Below, one piece after another: positions 16,125-49,999 of a stretch of DNA of 64,000 nucleotides. The notes beneath the pieces were generated by a model that saw only the letters and a program-made list of their open reading frames with translations, ran no database searches and was not told where the DNA came from. Within the stretch, counting starts at the first letter, position 1; every line of letters starts with the position of its first letter. Made by a program: the position numbers and the translations under genes. The DNA is taken from contig JBHLQH010000009.1 in NCBI GenBank assembly GCA_048884965.1, positions 1 through 64,000 on the forward strand. The letters are read 5' to 3'. The stretch comes from Candidatus Thorarchaeota archaeon. Lineage in GTDB: Archaea; Asgardarchaeota; Thorarchaeia; Thorarchaeales; Thorarchaeaceae.

Positions 16125-17858
16125 TCAAAGTCGGTGAGCTTTCTTCCAGTGGTTGATAATCTCAGTTACTGTGCTGTCTTCGATCTTTCCATGAGGAGAG
16201 AGTCGTTCAAGTAGCCGGTATGGTGGTTTCAATGTATCAACACTATATCCTTCCTGTATCTTGAATTGCATTCGCAGATGGAAGGACTCTTCTCCCATAC
16301 GGACTAGCTCTTCCTCTGTTCGCTCTTCTCCCAGCGCTTTGAGTGTACTCAATACGATGTCCGGAGTGAATACGGGTCTCGCAAACAGACATAGTACAAG
16401 GGAGTTCAGTACTGATCGCCAGGTGTCCTCCTCTGCGAGCATAGTCCCTATCGCCTCATTGGTCAAGGACTTGGACAATGACTTCTGATCGATGCTGTAG
16501 CCAGCATTATCCAAATGACTGTGACGTATCCCTACCATGTGTCCTACTATGTTCGCCGGACCGGTATGATATCCCGAGGCTTCGTTCCCTTCAAAGTGAA
16601 CCGCGTACTCACCCCCTCCGTATTTCTCTGAAAGAGTCTTCACACCTTGTCCAGCAATCTCATAGAATTCATTTGAAGGATTGGTGATATTGTCAAGTAG
16701 GCTAAGATATACACCTACATCTCCCCATCTGGGTGCAAGGCCAGCAAGATCATCCTTGTTAACAAGACCCTTGTTATAGGCTTCAGTGATCCACCCAAGC
16801 ACAACTCCTGCGCTCATAGCGTCAAACCCTCTTAGGTCTGCTCTCTCTATAAGTTGAAGCACTCCTTCAGTGGTGCCGACACCAAGGTTAGATCCAAGAG
16901 CGAAGATCAGCTCATAGTCATATGGGACATAGATAGTGCCATAGTCCCGATGCTTGGTGTCGAATTGGATGCGCAGTTCTGCAATATGGATACAGCCAAT
17001 CGGACAGGGAACACAAGCGCTTTTCCCAACAAGCAGCTCATCAGCAAAGCGTTCTCCTGATATCTCTTCAGCCCCTTCAAAGTTGAACGAACTGAAATTG
17101 CGGGTGGGAAGAGCCTGCATCTCGTTGAGTGGCAAGACATTCACTGATGTCCCAATGATATCATATTTGTCCATCCTGCCAGTACGCAGCACCAGGTCAT
17201 GTATCTTCTTGTACTCGTTTCGGTACTCCTTCACTGAAGGAACCTTCTGATGTTGGGTACCTGTTATTACGATGCCTTTGAGCATCTTGGCTCCCATAAC
17301 ACATCCAAGGCCAAGCCGTCCAAAGTGTCGCACAGTATCAGCAACGACCATCGCGTAACGTACCTGATTCTCTCCTGCAACTCCTATTCGAAGTATCGAG
17401 CGTCTTCCCTCTCCTGGAGCCTTCTCCTTTAGGATGCGTCCTGTGGCTCTCGTGGACAATCCCCACAATGCATGTGCATTCCGAAACTCAACAGTATCAT
17501 CTTGGATTAGCAAGTAGTGGGGCTTGTCCAGTTTTCCTGTGATCATGATGGCATCATGACCTGCTAGTCGCATTGCCATGCTCAATTTGCCACCTGCATA
17601 GCTTTCCCCAAGATTTCCTGTCAAAGGGGATTTGAAGAGGGCAACAGTCTTGGCACAACAGGGATAGAAAACATTGAGAGGACCAATTGCAAAAATGATA
17701 GGAGCATCAACGTAGGGTGTATTGGGAGGGCAATTGTCAATGAGGAGCTTTGAAGCAACCCCGACACCACCAAGGTACCTTTCGAAGAGGTCTTGTCGGT
17801 CAACAATCTTAGAGGTCTGAGCTGAAAGATCGATGTGGAGGAGTTGTCCCTGTTTCAT
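16125..17858 (-). CDS. aor: Aldehyde:ferredoxin oxidoreductase family (W/Mo-pterin)
   Basis: YLGGVG.A, KSPLTG..GES.AGG, IGVAGEN.V.YA, GRLGLG.VMGAK.LK, C..CPIGC. Confidence 0.9.
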   Translation of the reverse strand: MKQGQLLHIDLSAQTSKIVDRQDLFERYLGGVGVASKLLIDNCPPNTPYVDAPIIFAIGPLNVFYPCCAKTVALFKSPLTGNLGESYAGGKLSMAMRLAGHDAIMITGKLDKPHYLLIQDDTVEFRNAHALWGLSTRATGRILKEKAPGEGRRSILRIGVAGENQVRYAMVVADTVRHFGRLGLGCVMGAKMLKGIVITGTQHQKVPSVKEYRNEYKKIHDLVLRTGRMDKYDIIGTSVNVLPLNEMQALPTRNFSSFNFEGAEEISGERFADELLVGKSACVPCPIGCIHIAELRIQFDTKHRDYGTIYVPYDYELIFALGSNLGVGTTEGVLQLIERADLRGFDAMSAGVVLGWITEAYNKGLVNKDDLAGLAPRWGDVGVYLSLLDNITNPSNEFYEIAGQGVKTLSEKYGGGEYAVHFEGNEASGYHTGPANIVGHMVGIRHSHLDNAGYSIDQKSLSKSLTNEAIGTMLAEEDTWRSVLNSLVLCLFARPVFTPDIVLSTLKALGEERTEEELVRMGEESFHLRMQFKIQEGYSVDTLKPPYRLLERLSPHGKIEDSTVTEIINHWKKAHRL

Positions 17859-18492: not shown

Positions 18493-21400
18493 ATGCGAAA
18501 TAGAGTGATGGCTAAGGCCATTCTCCTACTATTAGTACTTGGATTGTCTGCGCTTTTTAGCAGTCTACCAGCAGTGAATGCTGGTTCTATTCCAAGTGAA
18601 GCCGGGACCATCGTCCCTCAGATGGACCAAAACACCCTCCCTAAGAGCGAGTATCTTGCTCCTGATAATCCTGAGGTTCAGGTCCCCGAAATACAGAACG
18701 AAGTTATGTCGCCTGCTGAGATCAAGGCGGAACTTGACAAGCTCTATTCTAGAGATACGGATCAGACCTTGCAGTATGCAAAGAGGTCGATTGGAACAGT
18801 ATTCTCAGAAGAAACAAGTAGCACTGACCAGATGATTGTAAGGTTCAATTCGTTTGAGGACAGAGATGCTTTTGTAGAAACACTTCCTTCTGGAGTGCTA
18901 TATACATGTCTTGCAACTTTGCCATATGTCATTATTTCAAAGACGAGTCAGGTCTATCATATGCTTACACAAACCACAGGCATCACCCGAATCATGGATG
19001 ACAGACTCCTATCCGCACCCGAGTATCAGGCCTATGATGTTGACAATAAGGAGTACGACCTATCCATGTACAATAGCGAGGGTCGTATCGGTTCATGGGA
19101 TATGCACTCCCTTGGTTACACTGGGAAAGGAGTAAAGGTGGCTGTGCTCGATACTGGTATCGATTCGGCCCATCCCGATTTGATGTACACGAGTGATGGA
19201 CATGTCAAGGTTATTGCTGAGCAATCATTCATAGATGTAAACTTTGATGGCATTCCCGATGAGGGGCCCGAGGACATAATTGGTCATGGAACCCATGTCG
19301 CTGGAACAGTTGCAGGTAATGGATATCAAATCGGCGTGGCTCCTGATGCACTGCTCATGAATGCGAAGGTTTGCTCATCAATTGGATGTGCAACCAGCTG
19401 GATGATTGAGGCTGTCGAATGGGCAATTCTCAATGACGCTGATATCATAACGATGAGTATAGGTGGATCAACATTCTGGGGTCTTGATGCCCTAGATGAT
19501 ATCCTCGATTATGCATGGCAACAAGGCATCGTAGTCACCATTGCAGCTGGCAATGATGGCCCTGCCGCATCATCTGTTCAGAGCCCCGGCACTGGTCCAC
19601 GCGTAATCACTGTCGCGTCCTCAGATGGTTATGATCTAATCACTGCCTTCTCAGGTCGAGGCCCAAGCGCGTTTGGTCACTACGATCCAGATATCGCTGC
19701 TCCCGGCGACTACATCTTCTCAACATTGCCTGGAGCAGCCTATGGTATCTATGGTGGGACATCTATGGCGACTCCGCATGTTGCTGGTGCAGCTGCACTA
19801 CTACTCGAAGCTCATCCCCGAGCTAATCCTGATATGGTCAAGGCAAACCTGATGTGGAATGCTAAGGATGTCGGACTTCCAACAACTGTACAGGGAGCTG
19901 GGTTGGTTGACCTTGTTGAAACTAACGAGAATTGGAACAAGTATCTTGCTATCCTTTTCCCGACATTCAATGAGTACGATGTCCTCTACTTGTCTCCTGG
20001 CGAGACATTCACTGGCTATTTCTCCTATGTCAATAGCCGACAAGACCCAATCGCACCCTGGTTCAAGCTGGACAAGAGTGATGCATTCGAAATCACAATC
20101 GACCGTGCAACGATGACTTGCGATATGTGGAAAGAGTTCTTTGGTGATAGAAGCAGCTTCGGTCAGCAATTCATACCATTCACTGTGACTGCGCCTTCTA
20201 ATGCACTACCTGGAGATCAGTTCTCTAGAGAGATCACGGCCTACTATTGGAAAGGAACATCCTATGGCGGCTCTGTGCATCCCCTGAGGACGAAGATGAC
20301 CCTTACTATTGAAATGGTCCAACCTGAGGATGATGCCTATACTGGTACTGATGCTAGTGATACTTTTCCAGGTGCCACCGAGGTACCATTCGGTAACTAT
20401 TCTGGATACATGTCAGACATTGACTACTACAAGGTCTGGCTTGAAGCAGATGAAACCTATACCTTCATTCTTGATGGTCTTCTTGGTTATAGCGACTACG
20501 ACCTAGCTGTGTACGGCGAATCAGGTGAGATTCTGAACTACGGATACACCGGTGGTGGTGAAGTAGTGACGATTACCACAGAAACAGAGGGATACTATAT
20601 CCTCCGAGTAGATCCTTGGTCATTGCTCATAGATCCTTGGGCAAACATGGATACGACTGGACCATATAACCTCTGGATGCTTGTAGGTGGAGAAACCGGT
20701 GGAGGTGGAAGTGGAGGAAATGGCACCTTAGTAGAGTATGTCAGTTCTGATATCTTTGGAACGGACTTTGATGGAGATTCAATCTATGACTATCTAGTAG
20801 TAAGTGTAACCCTCGATGTCAGTTCGCCAGGCCTTCTTGACATCTATGCTTTCCTTGCTCTGGATAAGAGTCCAGAATGGAACAAGTGGCTCTATGGAGT
20901 AGCATTTGCTGAGAACTTAGAGATCACAGCCACAGGTATCCAAGAGGTATATCTGTTCCTTGAGGGAACCAATGTCGCAGATCAGAACTTTGTAGGTTCT
21001 CATGTGCTTCTAGAGCTGTTCATTGGTGATCCGTCGACTTTCACAATTCTACTGGACCTACTGAATGTGTACACGTCGCCTGTTTTGGATTCTGCAGACT
21101 TTGGCCAGTACCATATGCAATACAGTACCTATTCAGTAGAGCCTTTTGATGAGGATGCTGATGGGACTGCAGACTGGCTTGCAGTGGATGTCACAGTAGA
21201 TATCGGTGAAACCTTTGATTACTGGATGACTTACTTCACCTGCACATTGTATCACCCTGCTGGATACTTCTTCTGGAATGCATATGATCCAATTCTGGAC
21301 CTATCTGTACCCGGACTGCAAACAATGCGTTTCCTGTTCGACCCTGCCACCTTTGTCACTGGGCAAACTGGCACACTTGATTTGGAGATCGTTATTGTAT

Positions 21401-24162
21401 ACTCTTGGGACCATCCATTGAATTTCATGACACTTCATAATGGGATGATCCCCTACATTCTAGCAGTTGGTGAAGTATTTACTGTTGACTTGGCCGACTT
21501 CACCTCTGGTGGTGGTGTAAGCGAGATAACTGACATTCTGGATTATGGGTTGGATGTTGATGGTGACACACGATTTGACTACTTGGCCTTCGACGTTTCC
21601 ATTCATGTGGAATCTGCAGGATACTTCGCACTTTCCTTACAGCCTTGGCTCTGGTCGATTCCCGATCAAGAGGTCGTCTTCGCATATGATGGAAGCTCAT
21701 TGGCACCACAATGGTACGAGCCAGGTGACTATACAATCACCCTCCTGCTGAGTGGTGAGGTCATCAATGGTGCTGGAAATGATGGACCATTCCTAGTCCT
21801 GTATTTCTGGCTAGACTTGTACGAGATGGGATACTATGGTCTTGATTTTGTAGGTACTCCTGACTTTGTACAGAACTATGAAACTGAACCCTATGTATCA
21901 TCAGACTTCGATACATCTGGAGCGAAGTTCATTGGTATCTCAGCCGTCAACTATGTTGACCTGAATGCTGATGGAAGTGATGAGAGTATCGAGCTTGTTC
22001 TGGAGTTTGAGGTAGGCTATCCATGTGAATTCGATATCATGCTTGAGATGTATAGCTACCCCATCGATGCAATCTTCTACATGCCCTCGTATGTCTATAC
22101 CATTATCGAAACACCAGGAATACAAACAGTATCTGTGATTTTGGATGGTCAGGACTTCTACCAGCAGCAATATCAAGGAAAGATGGAAATCTGGGTAATC
22201 GATGTCTGGAGCATTGACAACGCGACCTTTACCTTTACAAATGCGTTCTTCAGCTACCAGAATGGACTATTCGATGTTGACTACACTCTTCTACCTGGAG
22301 CGGCTCCTGCAGCTTCGATCTATGGATTCTATGACTATGGCTTGGATATAAATGGAAATGGATTCTATGACTATCTGGTTGTCAATTTCCTGATTGAGGT
22401 TCAGAACCCACGAGACTTCTTGATCTATATGGATGTCTGGGGTGACGCTTCGACAGGGTACTGGAGTCTTGTTGGATTCTACTCTGCATACTTCACCGCT
22501 ACAGAGCAGGGTCTAATGTCCATCGAATTGTACATTCCATCAGAAGACATTCTCAATAATGTCTATGATGAGTACACGAACTTCGAACTCTGGGTCACTC
22601 TTGTCGATGCTACGATATGGTATCAACTTGACTTCTTAGGGCCTGTCTACACAGACTGGTACTATATCCCAGATTTCGAACCTGCTCTAGGGTGGATCGA
22701 GTCTGTATTCGATTATGCCGAGGACACTAATGGAAACGGTCTATTCGAGAATCTTGTTGTCAGTGTCACTCTGAACATCCATGAACCAAGGGATCTGTTC
22801 CTTGACATGGAGTTCTTCGGTGGTGCCTCAACAGGCTATTCAGTCCATATAGGCAGTTTCTATGACTTCCTCTCCTTCCCTGATCCTGGTTTGCTGATAG
22901 TGGAGCTACGAGTTCCATCTACGAGCATTCTCAATAGCATATCTGATGCAGAAACTGACTTTCTGATGTATCTCTCCTTGCAGGATGCAATGTATGGCGA
23001 AGAACTGGACTTCTTCCCACCAGTTTTCACCAACTGGTACGATATGTCTAACTTCGAGCCTGCTTCTGTTGGCATAGTGGGTATCTATGACTACCCCGAA
23101 GATACGAATGGGAATGGTCTTTTTGAGAACCTTGTTGTTGGAGTTACGTTAGATATCCAACGGCTAGATGATTTCATTATCATCATTGATGTCTGGGGAG
23201 ATGCATCTATGGAATACTATAGTTTGGTTGGGACATTCGATGCATACTTCACTCCATCTGATATTGGATCGTTCTCTCTAGAATTGTACATACCCTCTGG
23301 TTCTATCCTGAACAATGTACTAGATCCGGCAACAGACTTTCAAGTCAATGTGCAGGTGTGGGATGCTCATACCTATGCAGTTCTTGATCGAGATGGGCCA
23401 TTCTATACCGGTTGGTATGATATGTCTGATTTCGAGCCTGCATCTAGTATCTACGGCGTATTTGACTACGGTTTGGATGCTAATGGTAATGGTCTCTATG
23501 ATGCGCTGATGATTGAGGTTCTGGTTGAGCTAGTATATACTGGAGAGTTCATTGTCGACCTAGCAGTCTGGGGTGATGCCTCAACTGGTTACACGTCAGA
23601 TGTGGGGTCCTATTCCGTCTATTTCAGTATAGACACTCCAGGTATCTATTCAGTTCCCATACAGATACCATCCATAGATATCCTGAATAGCATAATGGAT
23701 GAATCAACAGACTTCGAGCTATACATCTGGCTGGTTGATGCTGATACATACACTGTCATCGATCACGACTATGCAATCTACACAAATTGGTACGCCATCT
23801 CTGACTTTGAGGTTGCTTGGCAATACAGTACCTACTACTACACCTATGATGCAGATGGAGACACTTGCGATGATACTATCGATGTCGGACTTGATTTCGC
23901 GTTCTACAACCTGAGCGGAGTAGATGTTGAAATCTATCTTGATGCATGGTATTGGGATAATGTCACAGCTAACTATACCTACATCGAAACACTGGTTCAA
24001 TCGTTCTCTGTAACAGAGAATCCCAGTTTCTTCTCGATAGTGTTCACATGGCCTGCACCTATGGATGGTGACTTTGCATTCGTGTTGAGCATCTATATCG
24101 ATGGTGAGCTGTTCACGTACGAATTCATCTATTGGTACGGAGCTTGCGAATACATACCCTAG
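18493..24162 (+). CDS. Giant secreted S8 subtilase with PPC domain and 9 C-terminal Ca-binding repeat domains
   Basis: Signal peptide; VAVLDTG, GHGTHVAG, AAGN, GTSMATPHVAG catalytic motifs; repeats beginning D.D/N.D/NG. Confidence 0.92.
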   Translation: MRNRVMAKAILLLLVLGLSALFSSLPAVNAGSIPSEAGTIVPQMDQNTLPKSEYLAPDNPEVQVPEIQNEVMSPAEIKAELDKLYSRDTDQTLQYAKRSIGTVFSEETSSTDQMIVRFNSFEDRDAFVETLPSGVLYTCLATLPYVIISKTSQVYHMLTQTTGITRIMDDRLLSAPEYQAYDVDNKEYDLSMYNSEGRIGSWDMHSLGYTGKGVKVAVLDTGIDSAHPDLMYTSDGHVKVIAEQSFIDVNFDGIPDEGPEDIIGHGTHVAGTVAGNGYQIGVAPDALLMNAKVCSSIGCATSWMIEAVEWAILNDADIITMSIGGSTFWGLDALDDILDYAWQQGIVVTIAAGNDGPAASSVQSPGTGPRVITVASSDGYDLITAFSGRGPSAFGHYDPDIAAPGDYIFSTLPGAAYGIYGGTSMATPHVAGAAALLLEAHPRANPDMVKANLMWNAKDVGLPTTVQGAGLVDLVETNENWNKYLAILFPTFNEYDVLYLSPGETFTGYFSYVNSRQDPIAPWFKLDKSDAFEITIDRATMTCDMWKEFFGDRSSFGQQFIPFTVTAPSNALPGDQFSREITAYYWKGTSYGGSVHPLRTKMTLTIEMVQPEDDAYTGTDASDTFPGATEVPFGNYSGYMSDIDYYKVWLEADETYTFILDGLLGYSDYDLAVYGESGEILNYGYTGGGEVVTITTETEGYYILRVDPWSLLIDPWANMDTTGPYNLWMLVGGETGGGGSGGNGTLVEYVSSDIFGTDFDGDSIYDYLVVSVTLDVSSPGLLDIYAFLALDKSPEWNKWLYGVAFAENLEITATGIQEVYLFLEGTNVADQNFVGSHVLLELFIGDPSTFTILLDLLNVYTSPVLDSADFGQYHMQYSTYSVEPFDEDADGTADWLAVDVTVDIGETFDYWMTYFTCTLYHPAGYFFWNAYDPILDLSVPGLQTMRFLFDPATFVTGQTGTLDLEIVIVYSWDHPLNFMTLHNGMIPYILAVGEVFTVDLADFTSGGGVSEITDILDYGLDVDGDTRFDYLAFDVSIHVESAGYFALSLQPWLWSIPDQEVVFAYDGSSLAPQWYEPGDYTITLLLSGEVINGAGNDGPFLVLYFWLDLYEMGYYGLDFVGTPDFVQNYETEPYVSSDFDTSGAKFIGISAVNYVDLNADGSDESIELVLEFEVGYPCEFDIMLEMYSYPIDAIFYMPSYVYTIIETPGIQTVSVILDGQDFYQQQYQGKMEIWVIDVWSIDNATFTFTNAFFSYQNGLFDVDYTLLPGAAPAASIYGFYDYGLDINGNGFYDYLVVNFLIEVQNPRDFLIYMDVWGDASTGYWSLVGFYSAYFTATEQGLMSIELYIPSEDILNNVYDEYTNFELWVTLVDATIWYQLDFLGPVYTDWYYIPDFEPALGWIESVFDYAEDTNGNGLFENLVVSVTLNIHEPRDLFLDMEFFGGASTGYSVHIGSFYDFLSFPDPGLLIVELRVPSTSILNSISDAETDFLMYLSLQDAMYGEELDFFPPVFTNWYDMSNFEPASVGIVGIYDYPEDTNGNGLFENLVVGVTLDIQRLDDFIIIIDVWGDASMEYYSLVGTFDAYFTPSDIGSFSLELYIPSGSILNNVLDPATDFQVNVQVWDAHTYAVLDRDGPFYTGWYDMSDFEPASSIYGVFDYGLDANGNGLYDALMIEVLVELVYTGEFIVDLAVWGDASTGYTSDVGSYSVYFSIDTPGIYSVPIQIPSIDILNSIMDESTDFELYIWLVDADTYTVIDHDYAIYTNWYAISDFEVAWQYSTYYYTYDADGDTCDDTIDVGLDFAFYNLSGVDVEIYLDAWYWDNVTANYTYIETLVQSFSVTENPSFFSIVFTWPAPMDGDFAFVLSIYIDGELFTYEFIYWYGACEYIP

Positions 24163-24229: not shown

Positions 24230-24448
24230 CAGCTCAAAGATTCTCTCTTCTCTTGATGTGCCATGGAATTCAAGAGATAATCCACGCTCTTTCCAGTCAG
24301 TCAGGTATTGCTTTCACCCATAACAATAGTTAACGATTTCTAGATAGATGTTCTTTCAATCGATGTATTATCTATAATTAAATTTCGAATGATAACGCTT
24401 CAAAAAGACTTAACTTAGGTTTGTACCGAACTACTCAGGCTGATATAC

Positions 24449-25366
24449 ATGCAATATACCGTGATGGATAGTGTTGTGAAGTCGGTCTATCTCTTTCATA
24501 GGGATGGCAATCCTCTATTACAGGTGCCTCTCGACGAAGCTGACAAGATCAAGCCCCAGTCCATCAAAGGTCTCTTTGAACGATTATTCAGCGCTATCGA
24601 TGAAATCTTTACCGAATTAGGGCACCCTGAGATTCGATCTGTCGCAGTAAATGAAGGACTATTGGTATATAAGGTTCAAGATCCATTCCTTTTTGCAGTG
24701 TATACAAACAAACCCAAATCTGAGGAGTTCGCAAAGCAACTTGTAGAGCAGATCGAATACGAGTTTGAACGGGTCTACAATGATTTGCCTCGAATTGGTG
24801 ATTCATCGGTCTATGAGGGGCATTTCAATCCCTTTGAATCAAAAATCAGAGAGATATACGAAACCTTGGTGAACCTCAGAAAGGAATATCCAAAGCTCTT
24901 GGCATACCTCCCCTCATTCGTGCCTCTCTTTCGTCTGAATGAGGTCCTTAATCTGGGATTAGATATCATCGCTGGATATCCTCATGATACAATCAAGCTT
25001 GTTCGTCAACTCAATTTGTTCTTCTCCGATGATCAAGGTCTCGAGGATGTCATCGCCAGGACTATTGGGCGCTATTCAGGACATCAGATAGCCAAGAACC
25101 ACTTTGAACCCTCAATGGTCATCAATCAAGAGAATGTTCTTGATTTACTGAATGAGATCTCTGTTACAAAGCTTGATGAAACAAACGAGGTCTTTGATGT
25201 TGTCCTCTGTCCTGTTTGCAGAGAGAAGACATCAGAGAAACCCATGTGTCATTTCTTTAGCGGTTTCATAGAAGGTGCACTCGATAATCCTAGTATCTCT
25301 GTGGAGGAGATTTCCTGCAAGGCTACTGGCGAGAGAAGCTGTAAATTCAGATTACTCATCTCGTGA
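24449..25366 (+). CDS. Longin-like N-domain fused to V4R (Bet3-related fold) domain
   Basis: SVYLFHRDGNPLL...LFSAI...IRSV.V..G.LVY....FLFAVY longin pattern; CPVC...MCHFFSGFIEG...VEEISC...G...CKF V4R. Confidence 0.75.
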   Translation: MQYTVMDSVVKSVYLFHRDGNPLLQVPLDEADKIKPQSIKGLFERLFSAIDEIFTELGHPEIRSVAVNEGLLVYKVQDPFLFAVYTNKPKSEEFAKQLVEQIEYEFERVYNDLPRIGDSSVYEGHFNPFESKIREIYETLVNLRKEYPKLLAYLPSFVPLFRLNEVLNLGLDIIAGYPHDTIKLVRQLNLFFSDDQGLEDVIARTIGRYSGHQIAKNHFEPSMVINQENVLDLLNEISVTKLDETNEVFDVVLCPVCREKTSEKPMCHFFSGFIEGALDNPSISVEEISCKATGERSCKFRLLIS

Positions 25367-25446
25367 AACGTCATCCTATCCTAGTGGATATCAATTCCTT
25401 CGACTCAGGAAGACTTAACTTCTAGAAGTCTGAAGTAAAATTCCGG

Positions 25447-25785
25447 GTGATTTCCATTCAAACTAATCTGATTGACCCCGAAGATGTATTTCTCATCAGC
25501 GTCGAGGCATTAATCGTAGTTGGACTTCTAGTCGCAGTCATATTCGCATATATCATTCAGAGGCAGCATGCCAAGATTACAAGTGGATGGAACTTCATCT
25601 TCTTTGGTCTTATCTTCCTACTGCTTCATTCGATATTTGACACCCTTGATACATTACAGCTTGATGATTTTGTCATAGATATCCTCCAGCTTCTTGATGG
25701 GTCGACATTCGTTCTGGGTCTACTTATGTTCGCCTTTGGAATATACAAGATCGCCGAGTATGGCGCGAAGAGATGGGGGTTGTAA
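25447..25785 (+). CDS. Small membrane protein (3 TM)
   Basis: Three hydrophobic helices with intramembrane D..D (SIFDTLD). Confidence 0.7.
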   Translation: MISIQTNLIDPEDVFLISVEALIVVGLLVAVIFAYIIQRQHAKITSGWNFIFFGLIFLLLHSIFDTLDTLQLDDFVIDILQLLDGSTFVLGLLMFAFGIYKIAEYGAKRWGL

Positions 25786-25788
25786 AAG

Positions 25789-26163
25789 ATGCAAGAACTA
25801 CAAATCGATTTTCACCCACCTGATGATATCCTAAGCCTGACCAAAGCATTCTTGGATGCTGGAGCGGCAGTCGTCTTTGTCATTGTCCTGCTTGTGGTCA
25901 TCTATGCCAGAAAGCGATATCCCATTATGGAACGAAATCGAACTTTCCTACCACTTCTGCTCTTCTCGATATTCGGTGTGATTTCGACAACCATGGACGC
26001 CATTGATGAGTGGTATTGGTTCAGTCCCAGTGCCTTCTATGATACAATTTGGAAACCCACGAGGCTTTTGCTCTTTGTCATTGGCATCTTCATACTTGTC
26101 ATAGCTTTCCATCAGTTCTATGGTTTCTCAGAGCGCCTCTTCGGAGAAGAAGTTGATGGATGA
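25789..26163 (+). CDS. Small membrane protein (3 TM), probable paralogue of the upstream gene
   Basis: Three hydrophobic helices, TMDAID, C-terminal Y.F..R..G similar to the neighbour. Confidence 0.7.
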   Translation: MQELQIDFHPPDDILSLTKAFLDAGAAVVFVIVLLVVIYARKRYPIMERNRTFLPLLLFSIFGVISTTMDAIDEWYWFSPSAFYDTIWKPTRLLLFVIGIFILVIAFHQFYGFSERLFGEEVDG

Positions 26164-27058
26164 TATAATCAAGACTGTGTACATCCTTCACCTAGATGGA
26201 ACTCCAGTACTTAGAGTGGATATGGACCTCGGAGAAGATGTAGATAATCTAGATGGCTTCCTCGGACTATTTGGCGGATTCTCTAGTGCTATCAATACAT
26301 TAGTGAAGGAACTCGGTCACAAAGAGATAAAATCGATAACCGTTTCTGATGGCGTGCTTGTCTACAGCTCTAGAGACCCTCTTCTATTCGTGGTTCATTC
26401 TGTCAATCCGAAATATGAACAGCTTTCAAAACTACTAGTCAAACAGATTGAACACGAATTCTTGACAGATTTCGACGATGTGCTGAATGATGAGAACATC
26501 TTTGTTATGTGCGACCTCTTCAAGCCTTTCAAATCAAACATAATCCAGATCCATGAGAATCTGATGAAGCTATATTCTGAGTATCCTGAACTCCTTGATT
26601 TCATGTCGACATTCATCCCCCTCTCAAAGCTCTATGAGGTCCTCAACATGGGCTTGGATCTGATTAGAGGATATCCGACAGATACGATCAGACTAGTTCG
26701 ACAATTGGAGAACTATTTCTCAAAGGATGATTATCTGAAAGATGTGGCATTGACGCTAGGCAGGTACTCTGGCCACATGATAGCAAAGGAACGATATCAT
26801 GGTGAGATCGTCATCGACCATGATAAGGTCCTCAAATTACTGAACGAGATATCTATCGTAAAATTCGACACATCTAAGGAATGCTTTGATTTCCAACTAT
26901 GTCCCATCTGCCGTGAGAAGAAGTCCGAGAAGCCAATGTGCGAGTTCTTCAGTGGTTTTATCGAAGGGGCCTTGGATAATCCGAGCATCTCGGTCCTAGA
27001 GACCACCTGTAAGGCACGTGGCGATAGGTCCTGCAGTTTCAAGATTATCCGTTCCTGA
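26156..27058 (+). CDS. Longin-like plus V4R fusion, paralogue of 24449..25366
   Basis: Shared blocks FSAI..ELGH.EI.S, EVLN.GLD.I.GYP.DTI.LVRQL, GRYSGH.IAK, CP.CREK.SEKPMC.FFSGFIEGALDNPSISV; ATG 26156. Confidence 0.78.
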   Translation: MDDIIKTVYILHLDGTPVLRVDMDLGEDVDNLDGFLGLFGGFSSAINTLVKELGHKEIKSITVSDGVLVYSSRDPLLFVVHSVNPKYEQLSKLLVKQIEHEFLTDFDDVLNDENIFVMCDLFKPFKSNIIQIHENLMKLYSEYPELLDFMSTFIPLSKLYEVLNMGLDLIRGYPTDTIRLVRQLENYFSKDDYLKDVALTLGRYSGHMIAKERYHGEIVIDHDKVLKLLNEISIVKFDTSKECFDFQLCPICREKKSEKPMCEFFSGFIEGALDNPSISVLETTCKARGDRSCSFKIIRS

Positions 27059-48802: not shown

Positions 48803-49999
48803 CTAGAAGGGGTAAAGGTAACGGATGGTCCGAAGTCCGAGAAGCAGCATCTTGGGATTCTGCAGCAAACGAGAAATAACCTTCCTCTGCATATCCATAT
48901 CCCCTTCGCGCCTTACTATCTCAAGCAATCCATATCTATTGGCCCCTTCTACGACTGTATCGATTCCCTTGTCAGAGAGTGAAGTGAGCATCTTCTGTGC
49001 GATGAACATTGCTTGTAGTTCTCGATAAAGCACAGATTTCCATTTATGATCGAACTTGTTCAGCTCGACTGTACCGTTTTCTGTGAGAAGGACCTTTGAG
49101 ATATAGGCTCCTGCTATCTGAGCCATTGCCCCTCCAACGACGATTCCCCCGCCTGTTGTAGATTTTACGATCCCTGCCGCATCCCCCAGACTAACAGCAC
49201 CTTTATGCGCCGTCCTTGTCATTGGAAGGCCAACTAGTACGACCCCTCCAAATCCCCTCTCTATCTGCATTCCCCCCAGACGATCTGCCATGACCTCATG
49301 TTTTCGCATGCATCTTTCAAGTCGCAATTTCGCATGGTCTTTTGACGCAATTCCTACCCGCGCTCGACCACCACCAAGGGGAATGAGCCAAGCGAAAAAT
49401 CCCTTTGAGATTTGACGACCATAGAACATCTCTACATAGTCTACAGGTATATCAACTCCAGAGACTTCGTATTGGTATGCAGGGTATTTGTGACTTCTTG
49501 GGACACGGGACAACCCAAGTCTTTTGGCAATATGTCCTCGTGAGCCCTCCGCATTGATTACGACTCTCGAGCGCTCGGTCACAGAGCGACCATGGCTATC
49601 GCAGTGAACGATATACTCCCCTCTCTCATAGAACACATCTCTCACTGGGCACTCGGTTCTGATTTCAGCTCCTGAACTCTGTGCCTCTCTTGCTAGCCAC
49701 TTGTCGAACTCATGCCTGTTTACGACCAAAGCCTCTCTTTTCCCTCGTTCAATCGTCAGGGTGTGATTGGAAGGTGAGAATATTCTTGCTCCTGTGATGT
49801 TATTCTGAATCACTTCTTTTGGCGTCTTTAGTCCAAGCCTGCTCAACCCTGAGCTACTGATAAGACCAGCACAATGATCAGGATACCCGATATCTCTATG
49901 CTCCTCAAGAATGAGGACCTGGTGCCCATCTCTTGCTATTCTCTGAGCAGCTATGAGGCCTGACGGACCGCCTCCAATTATGATTACATCATAGCTCAC
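48803..49999 (-). CDS. Geranylgeranyl reductase family FAD-dependent oxidoreductase
   Basis: DVIIIGGGPSG, CAG, F.WLIP, GDAAG.V...TGGGI. Confidence 0.88.
   Translation of the reverse strand: MSYDVIIIGGGPSGLIAAQRIARDGHQVLILEEHRDIGYPDHCAGLISSSGLSRLGLKTPKEVIQNNITGARIFSPSNHTLTIERGKREALVVNRHEFDKWLAREAQSSGAEIRTECPVRDVFYERGEYIVHCDSHGRSVTERSRVVINAEGSRGHIAKRLGLSRVPRSHKYPAYQYEVSGVDIPVDYVEMFYGRQISKGFFAWLIPLGGGRARVGIASKDHAKLRLERCMRKHEVMADRLGGMQIERGFGGVVLVGLPMTRTAHKGAVSLGDAAGIVKSTTGGGIVVGGAMAQIAGAYISKVLLTENGTVELNKFDHKWKSVLYRELQAMFIAQKMLTSLSDKGIDTVVEGANRYGLLEIVRREGDMDMQRKVISRLLQNPKMLLLGLRTIRYLYPF

Follow-up and report, generated by a model that had tools for sequence, protein, structure and literature searches.

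The DNA studied here is a 64,000-nucleotide (nt) window from Candidatus Thorarchaeota archaeon (contig JBHLQH010000009.1, positions 1 to 64,000), analysed through its open reading frames (ORFs) and their translations. A first-pass annotation, made from the sequence alone, had described two paralogous proteins of about 300 amino acids (aa), here A and B, that enclose two small membrane proteins, TM1 and TM2, with the last three genes tightly coupled. The ORFs bear out this layout, all four genes lying on the forward strand (Table 1). A and B share 52% identity over 302 residues (E 5e-112), and each joins a longin-like N-terminal domain to a C-terminal V4R domain. The stop of TM1 and the start of TM2 are 3 nt apart, gene B overlaps the end of TM2 by 8 nt, and 80 nt separate gene A from TM1. 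TM1, TM2 and one longin-V4R fusion recur as linked genes across the Asgard phylum, and we regard them as candidates for a complex anchored in the membrane that serves in sensing or as a GTPase platform; a TRAPP is not thereby demonstrated.

Table 1. Coordinates of the module genes and associated features in the 64,000-nt window.
Feature	Position	Strand	Details
Gene A, extra longin-V4R paralogue, 305 aa	24449..25366	+	Alternative start 24464; longin about residues 5-150, V4R about residues 174-305
Five invariant Cys of the gene A V4R domain	25208..25342	+	C254-P-x-C257, C267, C290, C298; predicted Zn site
TM1, protein with three transmembrane segments, 112 aa	25447..25785	+	Invariant E20 in helix 1; D65-x-x-D68-T69, predicted at outer end of helix 2
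TM2, three-segment paralogue of TM1, 124 aa	25789..26163	+	R-Y-P loop, predicted cytoplasmic; M69-D-A-x-D73-E74-W-x-W77-F; W88-K89; C-tail F-S-x-R116-L-F-G119-E-E
Gene B, conserved longin-V4R fusion, 300 aa	26156..27058	+	Start 26156 backed by homologues; longest ORF, from 26120, is 312 aa
11-mer AGACTTAACTT upstream of gene A	24406..24416	+	Second, identical copy before TM1 (25411-25421); the two may be a common promoter or regulatory element

Two profile searches, one with the fusion and one with TM2, were each run over 400 genomes of the Asgard phylum. The fusion profile recovered full-length fusions in 30 genomes from four families, all 30 of which carry TM2, and in this set the order TM1-TM2-fusion was found at every locus where the contig permitted. 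The TM2 profile widened the carriers to 48 of the 400 genomes, which represent 11 families and 24 of 85 genera. The 18 genomes added in this way all have a V4R gene no more than about 1.2 kb away; the ten added loci that we examined hold TM1, TM2 and a protein of 254-299 aa to which the longin half and the V4R half of the B profile each match, with a shorter linker in nine of the ten. Adjacency of TM1, TM2 and a longin-V4R gene was observed in 48 of 48 carrier genomes and in three gene orders: TM1-TM2-fusion, fusion-TM1-TM2, and the fusion convergent with TM1-TM2. Carrier lineages include Thorarchaeota, Hodarchaeota, Heimdallarchaeum endolithica and aukensis, and other metagenome-assembled genomes with Heimdall or Gerd labels, and B-type orthologues lie downstream of TM1-TM2 in Thor, Hod, Heimdall and Loki genomes. 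An exact-sequence look-up identified two carriers as cultured organisms, Ca. Lokiarchaeum ossiferum (NEF87_000078, 79 and 80) and Promethearchaeum syntrophicum MK-D1 (WP_147662013.1). The lineage of the window is thus Asgard, in line with the first-pass annotation, and homologues of A and B in public databases are labelled Thorarchaeota.

Start and stop overlaps within the module are 4-8 nt, and the genes around it vary from genome to genome. Other Thor genomes have a single fusion gene after two small genes, joined by ATGA-type overlaps, in neighbourhoods that are otherwise different. Since the adjacency has been kept through rearrangement, it points to a functional unit and is much stronger evidence than one inherited operon would be.

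A maximum-likelihood tree placed the A-type proteins in a clade (support 98 in the Shimodaira-Hasegawa-like approximate likelihood ratio test, SH-aLRT) nested within the Thorarchaeota clade (100), with Hod plus Heimdallarchaeum and a second Heimdall group outside. This nesting indicates that A is a lineage-specific duplication. The conserved unit is three genes, not four, and the mirror-like arrangement of A and B is not conserved; of the synteny proposed across Asgard genomes, the linkage of the triad held and the four-gene cluster did not. Gene A has diverged in the most conserved longin helix of the family, where LFGGFSSAI has become LFERLFSAI. A heterodimer of A and B would be plausible on the model of the longin and TRAPPC3 proteins that form dimers.

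An alignment-based AlphaFold2 (AF2) model of the gene A product (predicted local distance difference test, pLDDT, 82.5; predicted template modelling score, pTM, 0.80) displayed two domains. The N-domain follows the order beta-beta-alpha-beta-beta-beta-alpha(-alpha) and has no N-terminal helix, with strands at residues 12-17, 22-27, 63-67, 70-77 and 80-86 and helices at 36-56, 89-110 and 129-146. In an exhaustive structural search, residues 5-150 matched solved longins, namely VAMP7 (Z 12.5, 121 residues aligned, 2.4 Å), Sec22b (Z 12.1), synbindin/TRAPPC4 (11.8), SRX (11.0) and sedlin (10.9). The sigma/zeta adaptor subunits and Mon1-Ccz1 also match, in a range that together with synbindin, sedlin and SRX spans Z 8-12, and Foldseek assigned a probability of 1.00 to Sec22b and the sigma/zeta subunits. 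Pfam longin models responded below threshold only: Fuz_longin_1 and Longin each matched a single one of the 31 members at E 0.0016, and L066 gave E 0.035. Roadblock-type chains appeared below the longins: the EGO subunit Gse1p (Z 8.5) was the sole one listed in the structural search, and Ragulator/LAMTOR chains stood at Foldseek ranks 37-50. The model topology and these matches (Z 10.9-12.5 for the named longins) show that the N-domain of the fusion has a longin fold, in agreement with the longin-type N-terminus that had been proposed for both proteins. The AF2 model does not show the alpha-beta-beta-alpha-beta-beta-beta order of Roadblock/LC7 (MglB-type) domains, which starts with an N-terminal helix, and roadblock chains rank lower.

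The C-terminal half is recognisable by sequence. Pfam V4R (PF02830) matches A with 48.1 bits and B with 42.0 bits, above the gathering cut-off of 31, and at E <= 0.01 it recognises every one of the 31 family members, the best with E 8.9e-15. Five Cys residues, a CPxC followed by three single Cys, are invariant in all 31 aligned members as well as in a 29-sequence alignment, so that the Cys-containing V4R C-terminus of the first-pass annotation is upheld. In NCBIfam the fusion comes closest to the V4R part of MsvR (E 2.7e-4, well under the cut-off), accompanied by weak Pfam matches to Methanogen output domain 1, and public annotation names the homologues 'V4R domain-containing protein', '4-vinyl reductase' or 'hypothetical protein'. 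In the exhaustive structural search, residues 174-305 of A matched the V4R/Bet3/H-NOX fold, with Z scores of 13.8 for PoxR, 12.6 for DmpR, 12.0 for Thor-TRAPPC3 (7yh2), 11.7 for Bet3 (2cfh) and 11.4 for MJ1460, differences that lie within noise. Foldseek placed Thor-TRAPPC3 at the top (E 2.9e-4). A PDB sequence search with the single protein gave no match at E <= 10, and with the family profile only MJ1460 (E 0.12) and 7yh2 (E 1.1) were returned.

Membership of the Bet3 family is a separate matter from the fold. With the Pfam TRAPP/Bet3 model (PF04051), neither A nor B gave a match at E <= 1, the 31 members had none at E <= 0.01, and a search of the whole genome found two other genes, both on contig C15 and none at the module locus. 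These two stand-alone genes, at C15:46717-47142(-) and 49569-49943(-) (L072 and L073), are about 2.4 kb apart, have frames of 158 and 171 aa, and are probably the counterparts of the crystallised Thor-TRAPPC3; the same contig also bears three Ras-superfamily genes. Judged by its sequence, the V4R domain of the fusion is of the ordinary PF02830 type, not Bet3. The first-pass annotation had one polypeptide joining both TRAPP building blocks and proposed structural comparison with Bet5/Trs23 and Bet3: the folds are there and the N-domain falls among longins, while the C-domain stands at least as near to the bacterial phenol sensors PoxR and DmpR as to Bet3 and family membership is not seen (PF04051, 0 of 31). 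It is accurate to speak of both TRAPP core folds within one chain, not of both TRAPP subunits, and the TRAPP framing is partly right, correct at the level of the fold and overstated for family membership and four-gene symmetry.

In a HMMER alignment, the CxxC, C267 and C298 of A align with Cys residues of the Thor-TRAPPC3 chain 7yh2. The related chain 7yh3 binds Zn via four Cys and contains internal cavities, and PoxR combines a Zn-Cys4 site with a ligand pocket (PMC10933270). The five-Cys cluster of the V4R domain is predicted to be a Zn site as well.

TM1 and TM2 each contain three hydrophobic segments with an acidic motif after the second. Invariant residues in the TM1 family are E20, D65, D68 and T69, and in the TM2 family P45 in the basic R-Y-P loop, M69, D73-E74, W77, W88-K89 and R116...G119 in the tail; the conserved acidic residues number at least six per TM1-TM2 pair. 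BLASTP revealed no similarity between the two proteins, though comparison of their family profiles with hhalign aligned them end to end (96-97% probability, E 2e-10), and in distant members the hidden Markov models of TM1 and TM2 cross-match each other's family (E 3e-12 to 4e-8). TM1 and TM2 are accordingly old, distant paralogues, the relationship that had been suspected from the letters.

The orientation of the two proteins can be predicted from family charge counts. Loop 1 holds 3.4-4.2 Lys plus Arg per sequence versus 0.3-1.2 at the N-end, and loop 2 holds 4.1-5.9 Asp plus Glu. By the positive-inside rule, loop 1 and the C-tails would be cytoplasmic, with the N-end and the acidic loop 2 outside. 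The D..D motifs noted in the first-pass annotation are present, whereas their supposed intramembrane position is not what these counts predict; they would sit at the outer membrane boundary, not buried, occupying the outer end of helix 2 together with the extracytoplasmic loop, and the invariant E20 of TM1 would be the residue within a helix. Toward the cytoplasm the pair is predicted to expose nothing but its R-Y-P loops and its short, conserved C-tails.

Pfam and NCBIfam searches with TM1 and TM2 gave only noise, with no family and no transporter signal, and a transporter reading was rejected for want of any family signal. The TM2 profile found 25 representatives only among 1.84 billion proteins. 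Each TM2-bearing locus examined has a TM1-like gene, and the fusion too wherever the contig reaches far enough. TM1 in the ESM Atlas matched unnamed clusters and the generic three-helix membrane modules of diguanylate cyclases and DUF835, which was uninformative. TM1 and TM2 constitute a new membrane protein family specific to Asgard. Three TM2 homologues (P0038, P0039 and P0040), whose sequences resemble the Heimdall/Gerd-group copies, end in an extremely acidic, low-complexity tail, 70-120 residues long and predicted to be cytoplasmic.

The invariant Cys and the conserved acidic residues could be read together as a redox or metal module, in which the V4R domain would use its five Cys as a redox switch or metal site, like the archaeal regulator MsvR, and the outward acids of TM1 and TM2 (E20, DxxDT, DxxDE) would bind or conduct a cation. 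The CPxC motif among the five Cys, the MsvR match, distant as it is from the cut-off, and the number of acidic residues in the membrane pair speak for it. The equivalent Cys in solved relatives, however, bind structural Zn (PMC10933270), the module lacks an output domain for DNA binding or enzymatic activity, the membrane proteins show no transporter-family signal above noise, and the neighbouring genes are not consistently related to metals or redox. We consider this reading unlikely.

A physical association of the fusion with the membrane pair was modelled with ESMFold2, using TM1, TM2 and B, each supplied as an alignment, in three runs and with three controls. The docking score was 0.46 (runs 0.46, 0.09 and 0.48) versus 0.11 for the best control. 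The pass mark for this score is reached by 58 of 80 solved complexes and by 2 of 110 mismatched pairs; passing scores of 0.60 or lower are seen in only 7 of the 80 solved complexes and also in both mismatches that passed. The docking runs agreed in at least 68% of contacts, with a partner pLDDT of at least 74. Given the prior from gene linkage, the model lends mild support, short of proof, to a docking of B on the TM1/TM2 pair.

Overall, the best-supported reading, whose chances we judge evenly balanced, is that the locus encodes an Asgard-specific membrane-associated complex for sensing or assembly. In such a complex, TM1 and TM2 would most likely pair as a six-helix unit with the N-termini outside and the C-termini inside, and their cluster of conserved acidic and aromatic residues would face outward. 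Soluble B, together with the diverged paralogue A in this lineage, would dock on the cytoplasmic face of the pair. The V4R domain would be the sensing part, kept together by a Cys4-type zinc site and enclosing a hydrophobic small molecule or lipid as PoxR, DmpR, Bet3 and H-NOX do; V4R-kind domains elsewhere enclose phenols, palmitate or haem. The longin domain would serve as the output or assembly platform, dimerising as B-B, or as A-B where A exists, and engaging a partner that is plausibly a small GTPase.

Several observations weigh against a complex of this kind. The docking result is only a weak pass, with one of the three runs failing, and the surface that the TM pair exposes to the cytoplasm is small. 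A look-up of RNA runs returned none that covers the locus. In the Borrarchaeum-like lineage, four of six contigs have the fusion with no TM pair adjacent, which implies that the fusion can be encoded apart from the pair. In HeLa cells, Asgard TRAPPC3 and roadblock proteins showed no membrane localisation, a test in which neither the fusion nor the TM partners took part (PMC10933270). The failed run and the Borrarchaeum-like contigs would also suit a simpler explanation, in which unrelated small membrane proteins share an operon with a soluble V4R sensor and are co-inherited with no physical complex. This is hard to reconcile with co-localisation in every carrier genome across 11 families and three gene orders, with a TM2 family so small, whose examined loci all have a TM1-like gene and, where the contig is long enough, the fusion, and with overlapping starts and stops; we regard it as very unlikely.

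The eukaryotic TRAPP core is built from two folds, longin and Bet3/V4R, and platforms of longin or roadblock type organise small GTPases on membranes. The genome of the window has 36 Ras-superfamily matches, none on the contig of the module, and no small GTPase was found near the module in the window, on its contig, or at the Thor, Hod, Heimdall and Loki loci examined. Two variants differ. In Borrarchaeum-like genomes (L063, L087, L068-L071), an operon of two overlapping genes, one for a small GTPase and one for a 183-aa protein, is convergent with the fusion, the TM pair being adjacent in some contigs and absent in others. In G125, which belongs to a different family, the gene directly upstream of fusion-TM1-TM2, on the same strand, encodes a Ras-domain protein of 316 aa (PF00071, E 5e-49; L089:2993-3943(-), contig C166 of G125). 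The N-extension of this GTPase (about 145 aa) has no similarity to the fusion profile, and G124, of the same family, has an epimerase at that place, with a GTPase 3 kb off. No fused GTPase or longer fusion form (535-2000 aa) was found, which is weak evidence. Because Asgard genomes are GTPase-rich, the GTPase neighbours of the module are a lead and not a statistical association.

The GTPase of the Borrarchaeum-like operon (L063:1034-2120(-), L087:3045-4089(-), L068:5465-6549(+), L069, L070 and L071) is Arf/Roc/Ras-like. The AF2 model of its 183-aa companion has a pLDDT of 56.6, with a beta-rich N-half below 50 and a confident helical C-end carrying a GLGPKR motif; the protein has no Pfam family and no profile similarity to the fusion. 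The two may be a new GTPase-regulator pair, the 183-aa protein being at most a suspected longin or roadblock relative.

These neighbours bear on a proto-TRAPP or Ragulator-like platform, in which the TM pair anchors a longin-V4R dimer, the longin face binds a Rab-, Arf- or Rag-like GTPase as guanine nucleotide exchange factor, GTPase-activating protein or tether, and the V4R domain has the structural or lipid-binding role of Bet3. The one chain does carry longin and Bet3-superfamily folds, synbindin, sedlin and Mon1-Ccz1 are among the matches of the N-domain, a GTPase adjoins the fusion in the two variants, and the Ras-superfamily genes of the genome would be possible clients. Yet the GTPase is missing beside the module in the window and at the Thor, Hod, Heimdall and Loki loci examined, the epimerase of G124 takes its place within the family of G125, and the Borrarchaeum-like contigs are 70-94% identical and amount to about one observation; two of 11 lineages are near what chance would give in GTPase-rich Asgard. 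The V4R domain moreover fails Pfam TRAPP, true Bet3 homologues are encoded elsewhere in the genome, and the absence of a fused GTPase form adds little. A platform of this kind seems improbable to us, and the narrower proposal, that the triad is a surviving proto-TRAPP whose dedicated TM1/TM2 receptor positions a dimer of the chain uniting the two TRAPP core folds, so as to activate or tether at the membrane a Rab/Arf-like GTPase of Asgard, quite improbable.

Comparison of the sensing or assembly complex proposed here with known systems disclosed one close published relative. Tran, Akil, Senju and Robinson (2024, Commun Biol 7:273) solved Thor-TRAPPC3 and presented an AF2 model of a Heimdall fusion of longin and TRAPPC3, MBD3190748.1, which they read as a sign of functional interaction (PMC10933270). 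It has the same architecture of N-terminal longin and C-terminal V4R/TRAPPC3 and comes from the same phylum, and the present family has Heimdall, Hod and Gerd members; MBD3190748.1 is probably orthologous to this family. The paper treats a single modelled protein, without membrane partners, operon, Asgard-wide spread or the Thor duplication (PMC10933270).

Thor-TRAPPC3 (7yh2, 7yh3) and eukaryotic Bet3/TRAPPC3 (2cfh, 2j3w; PF04051) resemble the V4R domain of the fusion (Z 12.0 and 11.7 over 128-129 residues) and their Zn-site Cys align with it. In contrast, they are stand-alone proteins of about 155 aa with no longin attached and no TM partners known, and the fusion has no PF04051 signal. The fusion belongs to the same PF02830 as the bacterial and archaeal V4R sensors PoxR (5fru), DmpR (6iy8), MJ1460 (2oso) and MsvR, the first three with the Z scores given above; these are cytosolic transcription factors with AAA+ and helix-turn-helix (HTH) or HTH outputs, whereas here the partner domain is a longin and the genes are tied to a membrane pair. 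The TRAPP core (Bet5/Trs23 with Bet3), Ragulator-Rag, Mon1-Ccz1 and SRX-SRbeta share a longin-fold platform at a membrane. They are anchored by lipidation or lipid binding, while here a dedicated pair of three-segment proteins is encoded, and the likeness is one of analogy, not membership. Our literature search found no paper on the membrane partners, the operon, its spread, or WP_147662013 and NEF87_000078-80. As far as can be told, the occurrence in 11 families and three gene orders, the presence in cultured strains, the PF04051 counter-test within the same genome and the two GTPase-adjacent variants are new.

The genes flanking the module in the window are unrelated to it: a 1889-aa S8 subtilase, an M23 peptidase, a luciferase-like oxidoreductase and an aldehyde:ferredoxin oxidoreductase (AFOR). 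The subtilase ORF (18493-24162(+)) has a signal-peptide-like start and an S8 subtilase domain at residues 211-469; the remaining stretch of about 1400 residues consists of Asp/Tyr-rich modules in repeats, for which there is no Pfam family. An AFOR gene adjoins the module in L. ossiferum (L080:3151-4476(-)) and lies 6.6 kb upstream here (16125-17858(-)), a proximity that is probably coincidental, AFOR genes being numerous in Asgard genomes. Toxin-antitoxin, defence and mobile-element readings of the locus were rejected, as no such domains are present and the flanks differ among genomes.

The two copies of AGACTTAACTT sit about 25-35 nt before the starts of gene A and TM1 and are the only exact copies in the window. 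If one mismatch is tolerated, two window-wide matches also arise in 25 of 100 shuffles, so that the count is not above chance. The element may be a shared archaeal promoter or operator, or a remnant of duplication.

Eukaryogenesis still poses the question of how longin/roadblock platforms were first attached to membranes, and here both TRAPP core folds occur in one chain whose gene is tied to a membrane pair. The presence of the module in at least 11 Asgard families, including Hodarchaeales-labelled genomes and both cultured Lokiarchaeia, provides named genes for experiment. Should the proto-TRAPP proposal be true, the duplication into A and B in Thorarchaeota would replay the step from homodimer to heterodimer in eukaryotic TRAPP and Ragulator. 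Even if the function proves to be ordinary ligand sensing, the locus adds a new Asgard-specific family of membrane proteins and a V4R sensor with a longin output, and corrects the idea of this particular V4R domain as a Bet3 orthologue.

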